Source: an uncultured Candidatus Saccharibacteria bacterium
Lineage (GTDB): Bacteria > Patescibacteriota > Minisyncoccia > UBA9983
Reading direction: 5' to 3'
NCBI GenBank assembly: GCA_964438405.1
Contig: CAYTKF010000002.1
Location: 12,404-76,403, forward strand
DNA length: 64,000 bases
The notes under the pieces were generated by a model. It did not search any database. It had not been told where the DNA came from and worked only from the letters and a program-made list of their open reading frames with translations. Positions 1,153-9,050 of this stretch are shown in pieces; positions within the stretch are counted from its first letter, which is position 1, and the number at the start of each line of letters is the position of its first letter. A program made the position numbers and the translations under genes.

Positions 1153-1595
1153 AGTTTTACATCGGGTGGTTGCCCGCCGAAGAGGCGGGAGGAAAGTCCG
1201 AACATCCGCGCATTTGCTTTGCAAATGCTAATCTTAAAAATCAAAAATCAAATCTCAAATCTTTTTGAGATTTTAGATTTAAGATTTTATTTTAGCGCGA
1301 GCGAAGTGAGCGCGACAATGGCAGTGGCTAACAGCCACGATTCAAAAAAGAAATTTTTTGAGTACAGACAGCGCAACAGAAAATATACAGCTTCAATATT
1401 AAGTTGGAGCAATGGTGAAATCGTGCATTAAGAGTGCACGCGTTGATATGGCAACATATCATTGTGGCAAACACTTGCCTGATGCAAGGCCGAATCCGCC
1501 TCATCGGCGGAGGTGCCGCTTGAGCCGTCAAGTAATTGATGAGCCTAGATAAATAACCACACAAAAACAGAATTCGGCTTATAGATGTAAAACTA
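1153..1595 (+). ncRNA. rnpB: RNase P RNA (bacterial type A) with a large AU-rich internal expansion
   Basis: P1 pairing AGTTTTACATC(1153-1163)/GATGTAAAACT(1584-1594). P3 hairpin GCCCGCCGAAGAGGCGGG. P4 5' strand GGAGGAAAGTCCGAAC. GGTGAAATCGTGCATTAAGAGTGCACGCG matches the GGGUGAAA...GGUAAGAGCGCACC block. GCTTGAGCC...GCCTAGATAAAT and the ACAGAATTCGGCTTAT P4 3' strand are also present. Confidence 0.85.
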
Positions 1596-1603
1596 AATAT
1601 ATG

Positions 1604-5961: not shown

Positions 5962-6681
5962 GTGGACAATATGTCCTTTAAAACCAAGAGGTTTGTTGAG
6001 TTCAATTTTGTTGTCTCTACAGAAGAACTTGGGCGTTGTCTTATCGATGAGTTAGGACAGGTAGTAAAACACCTACAACTTCTTGATAACGAAGGTCTTA
6101 AGTCAATAACAAAACGCTCTTTGAGCGGAAGCTTGAGATTGGAAAAGAGTGGGGTAGGACTAACCCTTTCTTTCTGTGAGGAAAAACAAACAGAAACGTC
6201 CAAAATAATGGCTACTTTCTGTGAAGAGACAGAAACATCTAAATTGGCTAGCTCTTTGAGTTTTTTTGCATCTGAACTTAAGGCATTACAAGAGAAGTAT
6301 TTTAGTTTGGTTAGCGGGACCATCGAGGGTAAATTTGTTTTGGCTGGTCCGGAATCACCGGGACCAGTTGAACAAGCGATTGCTGAACTTCCGCGACTTC
6401 CCGAAGAACTTCAAGAAGAGCAAGAAATTGACATGTCACGGTTTCCCAACTGGAATGGTTCACAAAAAGACCTGAAAACACTTCTTGCAACTCCATGGGA
6501 GAACAAGATGGAAGTAACTGTTAGGACATACAATCGTTTCAAAGATAACAACATTAGAACGATCGGCGATGTTGTTAAAAAAACAGAGGGTCAACTTTTG
6601 AACATAAAACATTTCGGCCACAAATCACTTAATGAAGTGAAAGGATGTTTGGAGCAAGTTGGTCTTAATCTGAAATCTTAG
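5962..6681 (+). CDS. Protein with a C-terminal RNA polymerase alpha-subunit CTD-like domain and a novel N-terminal region
   Basis: The C-terminal ~55 aa VTVRTYNRFKDNNIRTIGDVVKKTEGQLLNIKHFGHKSLNEVKGCLEQVGL follow the RpoA alphaCTD pattern (SVRSxNCL...IGDLV...TExELL...GxKSLxEIK). The N-terminus has no RpoA NTD features and contains an internal FCEEKQTETSKI/FCEETETSKL repeat. Confidence 0.55.
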   Translation: MDNMSFKTKRFVEFNFVVSTEELGRCLIDELGQVVKHLQLLDNEGLKSITKRSLSGSLRLEKSGVGLTLSFCEEKQTETSKIMATFCEETETSKLASSLSFFASELKALQEKYFSLVSGTIEGKFVLAGPESPGPVEQAIAELPRLPEELQEEQEIDMSRFPNWNGSQKDLKTLLATPWENKMEVTVRTYNRFKDNNIRTIGDVVKKTEGQLLNIKHFGHKSLNEVKGCLEQVGLNLKS

Positions 6682-6830
6682 TTGTTGTTCGTTCGTCGCC
6701 CGAATCTGAAAAGAGGAGGGCTTTTTGTTTGGTAAATTTTTTAAAAAACCGACTCTTATTTGCTATAGCTGATAAGAGTATAAAATTTAAAATTTGCTGA
6801 AAGTGTTAAAATAAATTAGTATTTATAATA

Positions 6831-9050
6831 ATGGAAGTTAAGAATATTCGGAATTTTTCCATTATTGCACATATTGACCACGGTAAGTCCACGTTGGCGG
6901 ATAGGTTTTTGGAAATCACTAAAACTGTCGAAAAAAGAAAAATGAAAGAGCAGTTTTTGGACCAGATGGAGCTGGAAAGAGAACGTGGAATAACTATTAA
7001 GATGCAACCCGTCAGAATGCTTTATAGCACGCGGATAGACGCGGATAAAGACGCAGATAAACGCGGATTACTATATGAAGATTTGACCTATAAATTAAGG
7101 GGCATGTTTTTTAATGTCTATAATAAACTTGGCCCGGGACACAAAAAGAATATCTATAGTAATGCCCTGGAAAAAGAGTTAATTAACAAGAACTTAAAAT
7201 TTGACAAAGAAAAAACAATGGAAGTTTTATATGACAATGAACAGGTTGGAATTTACAGACCAGATTTTGTTATTGAAGATAAAATTATTATCGAATTAAA
7301 AGCGCTACCCTTTATTGGTAAGTTAGAAAAAAAACAGATTTGGCATTATCTAAAAGGTTCAAATTACAGATTGGCATTATTGGTAAATTTTGGCGGAAGA
7401 GAATTACAAATAGAACGTATAATTTATGATAATATCCGCGACAATCAGCGTAATAATCAGCAAGAATCTGTGTATATTCTAAATTTGATTGACACTCCTG
7501 GGCATATTGATTTTTCATATGAGGTTTCGCGGGCGTTAAAGGCGGTTGAAGGCGCTGTGCTTCTTGTTGACGCCACTCAGGGCGTGCAGGCCCAGACAAT
7601 CGCCAACGTGGAAACGGCAAAATCTTTGGGTCTGACTATTATTCCAGTAATTAATAAAATAGATTTGGCATCAGCAATGATAGAAGAAACAAAAGAAGAA
7701 ATAAAAAAATTACTGGGCGAAACAGATATTTTGGAAGTGTCAGCCAAAAGCGGTCAGGGAGTGGAAGATTTGCTTCAAAAAATAATAAAAAGAGTGCCAG
7801 CGCCAAAATTTGAAAACGAATCTAGCCCTCGTGCCCTTGTTTTTGATTTTGAATATTCCAGCCATCAGGGAATTATTGCTTATATCAGAATGATAGACGG
7901 AGAAATAAAAAAAGGAGATGAACTTCTGCTTTCGCAGACAAAAGAAAAATTTGTTGTTGCCGAAACCGGAATTTTTCTGCCCAACCGGAATCCGGTTTTG
8001 AAATTAAGTGCGGGTGAAATCGGCTATATTGTTACAAATATTAAAAAGCCAAATGTGGCTGTTGTCGGAGATACTGTCATATCACAAAAAAATACACTGG
8101 CGCCTCTTTCTGGTTATCTTCAACCCAAGCCTGTTGTCTGGGCAAGCATATATCCTGAATCTCAGGATGATTTTGATGCGTTTAAACAAGCTCTGGAGAG
8201 ATTACGGCTCTCTGATAGTTCATTAAGTTTTGAGGAGGAGAATAATGGCGCATTGGGTCGTGGATTTAAATGCGGTTTTTTAGGCATGCTGCATTTGGAA
8301 ATTATCACAGAACGTTTGCGCCGCGAATTTAATCTTAAATTAATAACAGCGTCACCGACAGTCACTTATATGCTTGAACTTAAAGATAGTTCCCCAAAAG
8401 AAATTTATTCGCCGATTTCTTTTCCCGAGGAACATCTCATAAAAAAAATTTCAGAGCAATGGGCAGAATTGCAGATCATGGTTCCGTCGGAAAAAATGGG
8501 ATTGATTTTCCCTGTGCTTTACGACCACGAGGCTGAAGTTGGGGACACGGAAAAATTCGGAGAAAATCACACTCTTATAAAAGCCAAGATGCCGTTAAGA
8601 GAATTAATGCGTAATTTTTTTGATGAGCTCAAAAGCGCCACTTCCGGATATGGTTCTCTGGGGTATAAAATTTTGGGTTTTCAAGAAACGCCCCCGGGCA
8701 AAATAGTCCGTTTGGATATTTGGGTGGCAGACGAAATCATGCCGGTTTTTTCCCGTATAATAAGTAGAGAAAGAGTGGAATATGAATCCAGAAGAATCGT
8801 TGAAAAACTGGCGGAAATTATTCCCCGTCAGCTTTTTACAATAAAAATTCAGGCCAAGGCTCTGGGCAGAATTATTGCCTCGCGCTCCATTTCCGCTCTT
8901 AAAAAAGATGTCACCGGCTATCTTTACGGCGGAGACAGAACGCGCAAGATGAAACTTTGGCAGAAGCAGAAGCGCGGAAAAAAGAGAATGAAAGAATTTG
9001 GAAAGGTTAATATTCCCTCAGATGTTTTTATAAAGATGATGCAGAATTAA
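6831..9050 (+). CDS. lepA: Translation elongation factor 4 (LepA) carrying a ~150-aa in-frame inserted domain
   Basis: NIRNFSIIAHIDHGKSTLADR (G1), DTPGHIDF (G3), NKIDL (G4) and the LepA-specific C-terminus ...KKRMKEFGKVNIPSDVF. 739 aa against ~600 typical. Confidence 0.9.
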   Translation: MEVKNIRNFSIIAHIDHGKSTLADRFLEITKTVEKRKMKEQFLDQMELERERGITIKMQPVRMLYSTRIDADKDADKRGLLYEDLTYKLRGMFFNVYNKLGPGHKKNIYSNALEKELINKNLKFDKEKTMEVLYDNEQVGIYRPDFVIEDKIIIELKALPFIGKLEKKQIWHYLKGSNYRLALLVNFGGRELQIERIIYDNIRDNQRNNQQESVYILNLIDTPGHIDFSYEVSRALKAVEGAVLLVDATQGVQAQTIANVETAKSLGLTIIPVINKIDLASAMIEETKEEIKKLLGETDILEVSAKSGQGVEDLLQKIIKRVPAPKFENESSPRALVFDFEYSSHQGIIAYIRMIDGEIKKGDELLLSQTKEKFVVAETGIFLPNRNPVLKLSAGEIGYIVTNIKKPNVAVVGDTVISQKNTLAPLSGYLQPKPVVWASIYPESQDDFDAFKQALERLRLSDSSLSFEEENNGALGRGFKCGFLGMLHLEIITERLRREFNLKLITASPTVTYMLELKDSSPKEIYSPISFPEEHLIKKISEQWAELQIMVPSEKMGLIFPVLYDHEAEVGDTEKFGENHTLIKAKMPLRELMRNFFDELKSATSGYGSLGYKILGFQETPPGKIVRLDIWVADEIMPVFSRIISRERVEYESRRIVEKLAEIIPRQLFTIKIQAKALGRIIASRSISALKKDVTGYLYGGDRTRKMKLWQKQKRGKKRMKEFGKVNIPSDVFIKMMQN
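7028..7070 (+). repeat. Imperfect tandem repeats of ~12 nt (ACGCGGATAAAG-like, ~4 copies) inside lepA
   Basis: cACGCGGATAGACGCGGATAAAGACGCAGATAAACGCGGATTAc encodes STRIDADKDADKRG at the N-terminal junction of the inserted domain. Confidence 0.7.

Follow-up and report, generated by a model that had tools for sequence, protein, structure and literature searches.

The lepA gene (EF4) of the 64,000-nucleotide stretch of DNA analysed here (the window) is interrupted in frame by an insert in which a nuclease domain lies between two repeat arms of opposite orientation. We consider it probable that this insert belongs to a family of selfish cassettes of Patescibacteria (CPR), which spread horizontally, sit in frame and are translated with their hosts, the copy in the window being probably inactivated. 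No description of in-frame GxxExxY cassettes in CPR was found in the literature searched.

Anatomy of the insert in lepA

The interrupted ORF belongs to translation elongation factor 4. It scores 709.5 bits against TIGR01393 lepA (cutoff 533.9), a match split over two stretches, the C-terminal one (aa 209-738) corresponding to model positions 64-593. The G1 (AHIDHGKST), G2 (RGITIK), G3 (DTPGH) and G4 (NKID) motifs are all kept, as is the LepA_C domain (PF06421, E 2.5e-34), and PF00009, PF03144, PF14492 and PF00679 are matched as well. The gene and the element comprise the following parts:

6831-9050, + strand: lepA (EF4) ORF of 739 aa, with the cassette inserted in frame
6831-7028, + strand: host part 1, LepA residues 1-66, with the P-loop, switch I and strand beta2 ...PVRMLYS (strand at residues 60-66 in the model)
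7029-7067, + strand: 5' arm, four 8-mers (ACGCGGAT, ACGCGGAT, ACGCAGAT, ACGCGGAT) whose starts are 10, 12 and 10 nt apart
7068-7427, + strand: core, 120 codons, GxxExxY/PDDEXK_3 nuclease domain, LLYEDLTYK...LQIERIIY
7146-7148, + strand: position of the signature Glu, AAG = Lys at core position 27 (E27K)
7263-7301, + strand: PD...ExK catalytic motif, intact, with Asp at 7263-7265, Glu at 7293-7295 and Lys at 7299-7301
7428-7460, + strand: 3' arm, reverse-complement 8-mers ATCCGCG, ATCAGCG and ATCAGC, translated as DNIRDNQRNNQ and predicted to be disordered
7461-9050, + strand: host part 2, with the remainder of the hairpin loop (QESV), strand beta3 YILNLIDTPGH and the rest of LepA

The insert enters the G domain of LepA at the hairpin between strands beta2 and beta3, a place that holds 2-6 residues in close relatives (PVRMIY-KE-YILNLIDTPGH in the closest ones). 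Both anchors of the GITIK..DTPGH segment could be located in 116 of the 119 closest LepA relatives, and the segment measures 26 or 30 aa in 101 of these 116, compared to 173 aa in the window LepA. Thus an insertion of ~144-150 aa is real, in agreement with a sequence-only reading of this DNA that had placed a ~150-aa in-frame insert between switch I and G3. The bounds given there, 7026-7475, contain the insert but overshoot it by one host codon at the left end and by five at the right; as our best estimate we place the element proper at 7029-7460 (432 nt), to within a few bases. The junction peptides of the window LepA are MLYSTRIDADK on the N-terminal side (7028/7029) and NNQQESVYILNL on the C-terminal side (7460/7461).

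The element consists of three parts: a 5' arm, the 120-codon nuclease core, and a 3' arm in which the 8-mers are reverse-complemented. The 5' arm is translated as TRIDADKDADKRG, predicted to be disordered (pLDDT<50), and the final T of its fourth 8-mer doubles as the first base of the core. The repeats from which the N-terminal junction had been said to be built are present at 7029-7068, as three ACGCGGATA-like units spaced by 10 and 12 nt. At the C-terminal junction, the sequence-only reading had overlooked the reverse-complement motif (7433-7462). Inverted repeats are found at 7018-7068 and 7433-7462; the arms of the window copy are short, with a complementarity of ~71-73%, and the RNA fold of 7000-7500 is no better than that of shuffled sequence (z 0.11). 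Within the 64-kb window, tblastn and a search for motif clusters found no second cassette copy and no ORF-less arm pair.

LepA residues 84-198 match the complete TIGR04256 GxxExxY model (positions 1-116 of 116) with 111.4 bits (cutoff 35), and the core matches positions 2-116 of the 117 of PF13366 PDDEXK_3 with 106.7 bits (cutoff 22, E 1.2e-30), so that the GxxExxY/PD-(D/E)XK domain recognised earlier is confirmed as complete. The core has neither a start nor a stop codon of its own, and both the PD...(D/E)xK residues and the restriction-endonuclease-like fold are present. In the predicted structure, pLDDT is >90 in the core and <50 in the arms, while host strands beta2 and beta3 are retained; the core is predicted to fold as an independent domain on the host protein, the point that the sequence-only reading had wanted checked.

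The GxxExxY motif itself reads GHKKNIY in the window, while the other 80 of the 81 copies compared keep the Glu. The E-D-E-K residues are complete in those 80, the window copy being the exception. Judged by its sequence, the domain is a GxxExxY member by descent, though one without the signature residue. As the signature glutamate is lost in this copy alone (E27K), it is probably inactivated, and LepA would be tolerating a catalytically dead, immobilised passenger. The earlier question, domesticated or still mobile, therefore has a divided answer: the family looks mobile and selected for nuclease function, the window copy probably inactivated.

Nuclease activity of the family cores is a plausible expectation from their sequences. 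A survey of PD-(D/E)XK proteins gives the function of GxxExxY/PDDEXK_3 as 'Unknown', with no biochemistry for the family (PMC3424549). The family comprises 8,111 cluster representatives at E<=1e-3. A PDB search with the core profile returned T7 endonuclease I at an insignificant E of 0.14, which gives no support for junction resolvase activity, and PHROGs yielded only a weak 'endonuclease' match (E 0.005).

Recurrence and patchy distribution in Patescibacteria

Using tblastn, which is blind to the host frame, 267 confirmed matches were located in Patescibacteria genomes, and the best 80 of these were analysed. All of these best 80 are in frame within long ORFs, the hosts being LepA (35) and RecG (37), plus ValS, LeuS, SecA, GT2, GT4 and Wzy. 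A protein-cluster search adds GatB, RtcB, DHFR, AsnB, P-type ATPase and transketolase-like proteins, among others, and more than 15 unrelated host protein families carry the cassette. The insertion site is constant in each host: in LepA it adjoins G3 DTPGH, ~35 other LepA genes from independent MAGs having the cassette at the same site as the window, and in RecG it lies between helicase motifs II and III. The statement that GxxExxY proteins are normally free-standing thus does not hold for the window's clade, in which 80/80 of the best of 267 matches sit in hosts. Free-standing relatives do exist, 47-54% identical to the core, and the intergenic ones examined bear the same 8-mer arrays; the arms travel together with the core.

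The arm arrays are of the ACGCGGAT/ATCCGCGT type, with ACGCGGATATCCGCGT as the perfect palindrome form and an 8-mer consensus ACGC[G/A/T]GA[T/C] recurring about once per 10-12 bp. In the 5' arms of 71 elements, 223 forward 8-mers and 1 reversed were counted, against 214 reversed and 5 forward ones in the 3' arms; the modal spacing is 10 nt. All three reading frames are used (51/83/89), and the constraint therefore acts on DNA or RNA and not on the peptide. Placement of the core precisely at the palindrome centre (GAT^ATC) was rejected as a general rule, being true of the window's subgroup only; arm-core distances vary among subfamilies.

Part of this picture would also be expected if the insertion were ancient and vertically inherited, now fixed, immobile and possibly useful in LepA, RecG and other hosts (exaptation), the absences being losses. 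The site is constant in each host, core dN/dS values of 0.04-0.26 show strong purifying selection, the core is more conserved than its host, and its nearest neighbour usually sits in the same host gene. We consider this explanation unlikely, given that one kind of cassette, arms included, recurs in the >15 unrelated host proteins and in intergenic DNA, and that the domain is absent from all 119 closest LepA relatives (60-74% identical), so that precise loss down to a hairpin of 2-6 residues would have to recur often. The site is empty in a syntenic relative (L084), and the window LepA is nested in a 59-tip clade whose other tips are all empty, Fitch parsimony requiring at least 8 changes. Moreover, core and host identities are incongruent: the window core is 74% identical to that of L004 while the LepA parts of the same pair are 50% identical, and the correlation between core and host identity is weak (Spearman 0.16-0.24), although the sample (best 80 of 267) is biased to conserved cores, which weakens the host-versus-core comparison. 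The nearest neighbour of some cores sits in a different host gene, and core similarity between LepA and RecG (0.58) is close to that within one host (0.61). The core has a lower GC than the host gene in 79 of 80 copies. The PADLOC defence-system models gave no match to the cassette core.

In keeping with horizontal spread of a selfish cassette, we propose from these sequence comparisons that the window copy was gained after its LepA lineage split from the closest sampled relatives. The nearest empty site (L084) is 74% identical in protein, too diverged to place the element ends or a target-site duplication. The MAG CAYISL01 contains two cassette copies which are only 63% identical and thus give no sign of recent intragenomic transposition. 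No phage carrier of the cassette was found in IMG/VR, and the JGI metagenomes contained no strain-level empty lepA allele, the filled allele being equally absent since the strain is not in that collection. The mobile origin that the sequence-only reading had suspected is supported by the recurrence in unrelated hosts with the same arms and with the patchy distribution, the insert being missing in the closest LepA orthologs and found in the ~35 others.

Excision, splicing and assembly as alternatives

The arms could also act at the RNA level, pairing as a stem in the manner of rRNA intervening sequences or bulge-helix-bulge introns, so that the cassette is cut from the mRNA, the ends are rejoined and mature LepA is free of it. 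Inverted-repeat arms could juxtapose the host ends, and the arms of one element pair better with each other than with foreign arms (-0.78 vs -0.66 kcal/mol/nt, p 5e-5; shuffled -0.41); small ORFs are, furthermore, known in the stem-loop intervening sequences of rRNA. However, excision needs neither a preserved frame nor the absence of stops, and both are maintained, with arms of very different lengths, in 80/80 full cassettes and in 17/17 ORF-less arm pairs, which lie in frame in long ORFs at the LepA and RecG cassette sites. The 5' arm has no in-frame ATG in 63 of 71 copies, yet dN/dS of the core indicates purifying selection, and the core must therefore be translated within the host ORF. In addition, insertions fall in loops of the host fold, the stem in the window is weak, and Rfam gave no match at E<=1 in 6800-7700, intron or other; at gathering thresholds, the whole window contains only RNase P RNA and tRNAs. 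Removal at the RNA level is thus improbable.

Removal by protein splicing, as in an intein, would suit the niche: the cassette sits in LepA and RecG where inteins typically do, in conserved motifs of essential NTPases, and it carries a nuclease. We give this very little credence: Pfam and NCBIfam scans contain no Hint/intein domain, the junctions are variable and of low complexity, lacking both a conserved Cys/Ser/Thr as first residue and, at the C-junction, a His-Asn pair with a nucleophile, and ~25 residues of repeat-encoded linker are too few for a splicing domain. Finally, an assembly or sequencing chimera (an objection raised in the sequence-only reading) or a pseudogenised lepA, which the many partial proteins and short contigs among database homologues could suggest, is dismissed, because the locus is identical across three assemblies (two independent ENA assemblies, L085 and L086, match the window at 99.99-100% identity over 7-8 kb, insert included), the ~35 other LepA genes share the architecture, and the ORF is intact with LepA motifs and domains scoring normally.

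Proposed mode of spread and comparison with known systems

A selfish cassette of this kind would persist without RNA or protein splicing, translated along with its host. Its seat would be a loop on the surface of a conserved host protein that is expressed at a high level; there the arms would serve as hydrophilic, disordered linkers, and the core would form a domain of its own, attached to the outside of the host fold. In the window, the product would be a LepA fusion protein that the cell tolerates. Selection could keep the nuclease active because the cassette would pass horizontally, in a homing-like manner that we infer, from one lineage to another at matching conserved sites. As to mechanism, we would guess that the nuclease binds as a dimer to the palindromic arm arrays, or to their centre, and that a copy with a core serves as template when the cut is repaired; on this view an ORF-less arm pair would be a landing pad still empty or what is left of a decayed cassette. 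For this, a 120-aa nuclease tethered in its host must dimerise and find DNA, the feasibility of which is not obvious for every host.

More tentatively, and with clearly less confidence than in the selfish cassette itself, the family might be a new class of autonomous mobile element: a nuclease without expression signals or splicing of its own, for which the 8-mer arrays would be both dimer recognition site and landing pad, the core homing into ORF-less arm pairs, and which would be the long-missing kind of autonomous partner for in-frame palindromic repeats like the Rickettsia palindromic elements (RPEs). In such an element the stop-free arms would be usable as linkers in any reading frame, the core would be self-folding, and survival in essential genes would depend on nothing but translatability.

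RPEs are palindromic, lie in frame in protein-coding genes, and add a peptide that has been judged compatible with the host fold (PMC10969869). These MITE-like elements share with the cassette inverted repeats, unrelated housekeeping-gene hosts and residence in a reduced-genome bacterium. The window element has terminal inverted repeats and belongs to a family with recurrent in-frame insertion, as RPEs do, but it departs from them in having an enzyme: RPEs are ~150 bp long and non-autonomous, with no known enzyme, whereas the cassette carries a conserved nuclease domain under selection. Being small and non-autonomous fits only the ORF-less derivatives at other loci, and these arm pairs behave as RPEs do. 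The cassette arms are 10-nt-periodic 8-mer arrays, and the cassette occurs in Patescibacteria.

Like inteins and homing endonuclease genes, the cassette bears a nuclease, occupies conserved sites of essential genes, and is patchy and incongruent with its hosts; the degenerate window copy and the ORF-less remnants would agree with a homing cycle in which elements invade, decay and are lost. The PD-(D/E)XK fold is itself represented among homing endonucleases by I-Ssp6803I. Unlike inteins and introns, the cassette has neither a Hint domain nor an intron RNA, and with no splicing apparatus it stays in the mature protein. Its own inverted-repeat arms are a feature that homing endonuclease genes do not have, and where these reside in introns, inteins or intergenic DNA, the window cassette is nested in a host ORF.

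Free-standing GxxExxY proteins have the same domain, while the window's copy is nested, without start or stop, and has Lys in place of the eponymous Glu. The Cas4/RecB-type nucleases SSO0001 (4ic1) and Pcal_0546 (4r5q) are alike at the level of the fold only (~20% identity); the window core is about half their size, lacks the cysteines of an Fe-S cluster and is not in a CRISPR context. The ORF-bearing intervening sequences of 23S rRNA resemble the cassette in placing a small ORF between inverted repeats inside a conserved gene. They are excised by RNase III, which leaves the rRNA fragmented; the host of the cassette is, in contrast, an mRNA whose frame is preserved. The link that had been drawn between GxxExxY proteins and these intervening sequences may be a confusion with PF05635.

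If our reading is true, selfish DNA would have a third way of residing in essential genes, beside introns and inteins: remaining in a loop of the protein with built-in flexible linkers. RPE-type repeats, whose mobilisation was never explained, would gain a testable candidate for an enzyme-bearing relative, and the GxxExxY/PDDEXK_3 family a biological context. The insertions also show at which loops these proteins accommodate an entire additional domain, knowledge of use in protein engineering. Marker alignments of Patescibacteria (LepA, RecG, SecA, aminoacyl-tRNA synthetases) include these insertions of 130-250 residues, and annotation pipelines name such LepA and glycosyltransferase genes 'GxxExxY protein'.

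A nuclease-fold domain within LepA

The lepA gene of the window holds in frame a cassette composed of a 5' arm, a nuclease core and a 3' arm, positioned as follows.

6831-9050, + strand: lepA ORF, 739 aa, TIGR01393 equivalog match
7029-7067, + strand: 5' arm (our placement)
7068-7427, + strand: core (our placement)
7428-7460, + strand: 3' arm (our placement; whole element 432 nt)

The ORF matches TIGR01393 (LepA/EF4) with 709.5 bits (cutoff 533.9) in two stretches, the C-terminal one covering residues 209-738 (model positions 64-593), and profile scans recover GTP_EFTU, domain II, EFG_III, EFG_C and LepA_C, with no intein domain. The complete GxxExxY model TIGR04256 (1-116 of 116, 111 bits, cutoff 35) aligns to residues 84-198, which also match PF13366 (PDDEXK_3) with an E value of 1.2e-30; this bears out the claim of a sequence-only reading that such a domain lies inside the LepA GTPase domain. 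Alignment to orthologs confirms that it is an insertion: the closest relatives read PVRMIY-KE-YILNLIDTPGH at this position, and of the 116 close relatives with both anchors detected, 101 have a span of 26 or 30 residues from GITIK to DTPGH, against 173 in the window. The residues S (7026-7028) and QESV (7461-7472) of the window approximate the six-residue loops of relatives, such as YSLQSTLY. Two independent ENA assemblies are 99.99-100% identical to the window over 7-8 kb, insert included; a sequencing chimera, named at the outset as fatal to the claim, is therefore excluded. Going by the names of its LepA relatives, the window belongs to a Patescibacteria (CPR) genome. The GC content is 39.7% for the window, and 31.8% for the core against 37-40% for the host gene.

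AlphaFold2 confidently predicts the core (pLDDT 92.9) as alpha-alpha-beta-beta-beta-beta-alpha-beta-beta, and the nearest solved structures are PD-(D/E)XK nucleases. In a model of LepA residues 1-340 the core exceeds pLDDT 90, both arms fall below 50 and the host strands beta2 (60-66) and beta3 (214-220) are retained, in agreement with an independently folding domain. The finding is real and its first interpretation essentially right, with a wider phenomenon behind it.

Eight LepA relatives (P0129, P0145, P0154, P0176, P0178, P0180, P0225 and P0232) carry other short in-frame inserts in the same beta2-beta3 hairpin (window 7026-7475). These 11-40 extra residues, e.g. WHPQSQISNLKSQKDLEIRNWKLEI..FILNL, resemble the translation of AT-rich palindromic repeats from a different family. 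In CPR bacteria, then, the hairpin loop seems to be a general hotspot where repeats insert in frame. Directly upstream of lepA, a 236-239-aa ORF (5962-6681, + strand), whose sole recorded Pfam match is PF03118 (RNA polymerase alpha C-terminal domain), encodes a stand-alone alpha-CTD-like protein. The bacterial RNase P class A RNA at 1154-1597 (+ strand) matches over 444 nt against a 367-position model, and probably also holds extra inserted sequence.

Cassette architecture and hosts

In the cassette, 8-mer arrays in inverted orientation flank a nuclease-fold core, and the whole lies in frame at loops of conserved proteins. Insert DNA from a GT2 glycosyltransferase (L001), a LepA (L002) and a DHFR (L003) follows a common plan: a 5' arm of 3-5 copies of ACGC[G/T]GA[T/C], a core of constantly 120 codons (LLYEDLTYK...IKRIVY) and a 3' arm of reverse-complement units. 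The tandem repeats first reported at the N-terminal junction are present in the window, and their 8-mer, described there for that junction only, returns reverse-complemented at the C-terminal one (7018-7068 against 7433-7462). Across 71 elements from LepA and RecG, 5' arms hold 223 forward 8-mers and 1 reversed, and 3' arms 214 reversed and 5 forward. Their spacing has its mode at 10 nt, followed by 11 and 12, which is no multiple of three and close to one helical turn. All three reading frames are used (51/83/89), and the 8-mer is therefore conserved at the nucleic-acid rather than the peptide level. Arms pair better with their own partner (-0.78 kcal/mol per nt) than with those of other elements (-0.66, p 5e-5) or shuffled ones (-0.41). 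The encoded peptides are rich in T, D, A, N and Q in the 5' arm and in S, A, R and E in the 3' arm. Within the subgroup of the window, core codon 1 directly follows the last 5' unit, and the first 3' unit begins 5-7 nt past the last core codon; other subfamilies have an additional spacer between arm and core.

With the insert and short LepA flanks as protein query, about 25 LepA fragments with PF13366 inside PF00009 were retrieved, together with a GT2 glycosyltransferase and a DHFR carrying the insert at 53-62% identity. When the core alignment was run against GTDB, with each species represented by a single genome, tblastn confirmed 267 matches; nearly all of the best 80 are labelled as Patescibacteria MAGs. 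In each of these 80 the core lies inside a long ORF, with no fewer than 58 codons upstream of it and no fewer than 82 downstream, a count not built into the search, as tblastn is blind to the host frame. Among these best 80, LepA is the host in 35 (34 at the window's site, PVRMxY / YILNLIDTPGH, and L041 at a second one) and RecG in 37, between helicase motif II (DEQHRFG) and motif III (SATPIPRT). The remaining 8 include, by Pfam, ValS, LeuS, SecA, GT4, GT2, a Wzy-type ligase, a membrane protein with two different PDDEXK_3 inserts, and a host without Pfam assignment (L043). HMMER, run exhaustively over 1.84 billion cluster representatives, detected 8,111 GxxExxY family members at E<=1e-3; the ~45 best are mostly internal domains of long proteins, and inspection by eye added GatB, RtcB, asparagine synthase, P-type ATPase, riboflavin kinase, a transketolase/E1-beta-like protein, alpha/beta hydrolase and many GT4 enzymes as hosts.

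Three relatives of 132, 132 and 124 aa, whose identity to the core of the window is 49-54%, are free-standing in intergenic DNA, with their own ATG and stop codon, each between arrays of the 8-mer. One of them (L091) has six motif matches upstream and four reverse-complement ones downstream (more by eye when degenerate copies are included), with stops in all frames. Arms thus flank nested and intergenic cores alike, and arms and core form a unit in genes or outside them. Free-standing copies may be commoner at lower similarity than the best 80 of 267.

The same LeuS locus (L071:3152-6895) that holds a nuclease cassette also holds an in-frame alpha/beta serine hydrolase domain (PF06821/PF00561, residues ~658-822). 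In the membrane protein (L029:2876-5461, MAG DAIDAM010000003.1) one of the two inserts is of the cassette family; the second is more divergent (IIEKDLSYKLSG...NPKRVLN) and lies between different repeat peptides (YSADSDTFGNSDY / YSDNSDSFGYSDY), which suggests sister cassette families with other arm motifs. GenBank/NCBI annotation calls two of these proteins, a LepA fragment and a GT2 glycosyltransferase (P0009 and P0015), simply "GxxExxY protein", after the domain nested in them. Among LepA entries with the insert, many are partial and lie at short-contig ends, and assemblies may break at the cassette.

Selection, distribution and derivatives lacking the core

The core is under purifying selection, its distribution is patchy and incongruent, and ORF-less derivatives occupy the same sites. 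For pairs 79-98% identical in protein, dN/dS is 0.04-0.26, with synonymous sites frequently saturated. Of 81 copies, 80 retain the presumed catalytic E27, D66, E76 and K78, the window being the sole exception (E27 to Lys, AAG at 7146-7148); its copy is most simply read from sequence as inactivated and heading for decay, while LepA itself looks intact. Of 71 nested copies, 63 lack an in-frame ATG in the 5' arm, and in no case does a stop codon follow the core. Since protein-level selection acts on a segment without its own start or stop, the core is very probably translated within the host polypeptide. This, together with a frame universally kept through arms of 21-303 nt, is the main argument against removal of the cassette at the RNA level; no Rfam family matched in the insert region. 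Translated with its host, the cassette would in all likelihood provide disordered linkers (the arms) and a core that folds next to the host domain.

PF13366 is absent from all 119 closest LepA relatives of the window (60-74% identical over 524 C-terminal residues). The closest (P0122, locus L084) has an empty site and shares the gene order around lepA, with MurJ upstream and DivIC, ferredoxin-type, NAD-binding and hydrogenase genes downstream; a PP2C phosphatase gene takes the position of the alpha-CTD-like ORF. Of the 119 empty LepAs, 116 are nearer to the window's LepA than is any LepA with the insert (best 0.60). A neighbour-joining tree of 154 C-terminal parts, a crude method, places the window in a clade of 59 tips with no other carrier, and Fitch parsimony gives at least 8 state changes. 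Cores of the window and a LepA at L004 are 74% identical and their LepA parts 50%; in 27 of 33 comparisons the similarity of the cores exceeds that of the hosts. Across pairs, core identity rises only weakly with host identity (Spearman 0.16 for LepA, 0.24 for RecG). Core identity is 0.58 between LepA and RecG and 0.61 within one host, and for some cores the nearest neighbour lies in another host (ValS L008 with LepA L004, 0.78). Conserved cores are over-represented in the best-80 sample. Core GC is below host-gene GC in 79 of 80 loci (0.32 vs 0.45). The distribution points to horizontal spread.

In 651 kb of fetched loci, 17 ORF-less arm pairs (a forward array, then a reverse array within 60 nt) were found, all in frame within long ORFs. 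They recur at LepA sites of full cassettes, namely the beta2-beta3 loop, VPPP/RALIFDF and GDTI/LPGYKEPKPVVF; an arm-pair-like second segment was also seen by eye after NKID in other sequences. Arrays abut within 0-6 nt, with no core remnant, in 9 of the 17, and touch with zero gap at L008 (..INAD/IRVN..). At the GDTI/LPGY site, the arm pair of L012 (..RTNAEK-IQRGSASSQRESA..) and the full element of L041 (..RTNAET-GG[core]DTARD-IPRGSASSQRKLA..) are essentially the same but for the core, which is compatible with either core entry or core loss. In one LepA fragment (P0012) the 3' junction is duplicated (..SAQVEGVILNLID/DSARTSALSALSQRNSAQIEDYVLNLIDTP), with two copies of the 3' arm and beta3 start, as if a second insertion or repair event had occurred at the same site.

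Possible mechanism and related elements

The host gene very probably supplies promoter, ribosome-binding site and a high expression level. The cassette family appears to be selfish and to reach the same conserved sites by horizontal, homing-like spread, which would also account for the nuclease residues staying intact. We speculate that the nuclease, as a dimer like many PD-(D/E)XK enzymes, could recognise the palindromic arm arrays, whose period of ~10 bp would place successive sites on one helix face, and could cut at or near the array centre, ORF-less arm pairs being its landing pads.

The nearest analogue is the Rickettsia palindromic element, a MITE-like palindrome that inserts in frame into numerous unrelated genes and is judged compatible with the fold of its hosts (PMC10969869); those elements carry no enzyme, whereas the cassette has a nuclease core. 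Inteins and intron-borne homing endonucleases share its niche and population pattern, but they splice. GxxExxY/PDDEXK_3 is of unknown function in a PD-(D/E)XK survey (PMC3424549), and searches for GxxExxY, PDDEXK_3/PF13366 and CPR in-frame insertions gave no description of this arrangement in full-text literature, which mostly excludes subscription journals. We rate the cassette as in-frame selfish palindromic DNA with its own nuclease, and there is a substantial chance that it merits the rank of a new mobile-element class.

Elsewhere in the GxxExxY family, many proteins of ~260-275 aa (P0260, P0267, P0269, P0273, P0278 and others) consist of two tandem domains, and in another group, of 430-530 aa, the domain occupies the very N-terminus (residues 9-132).
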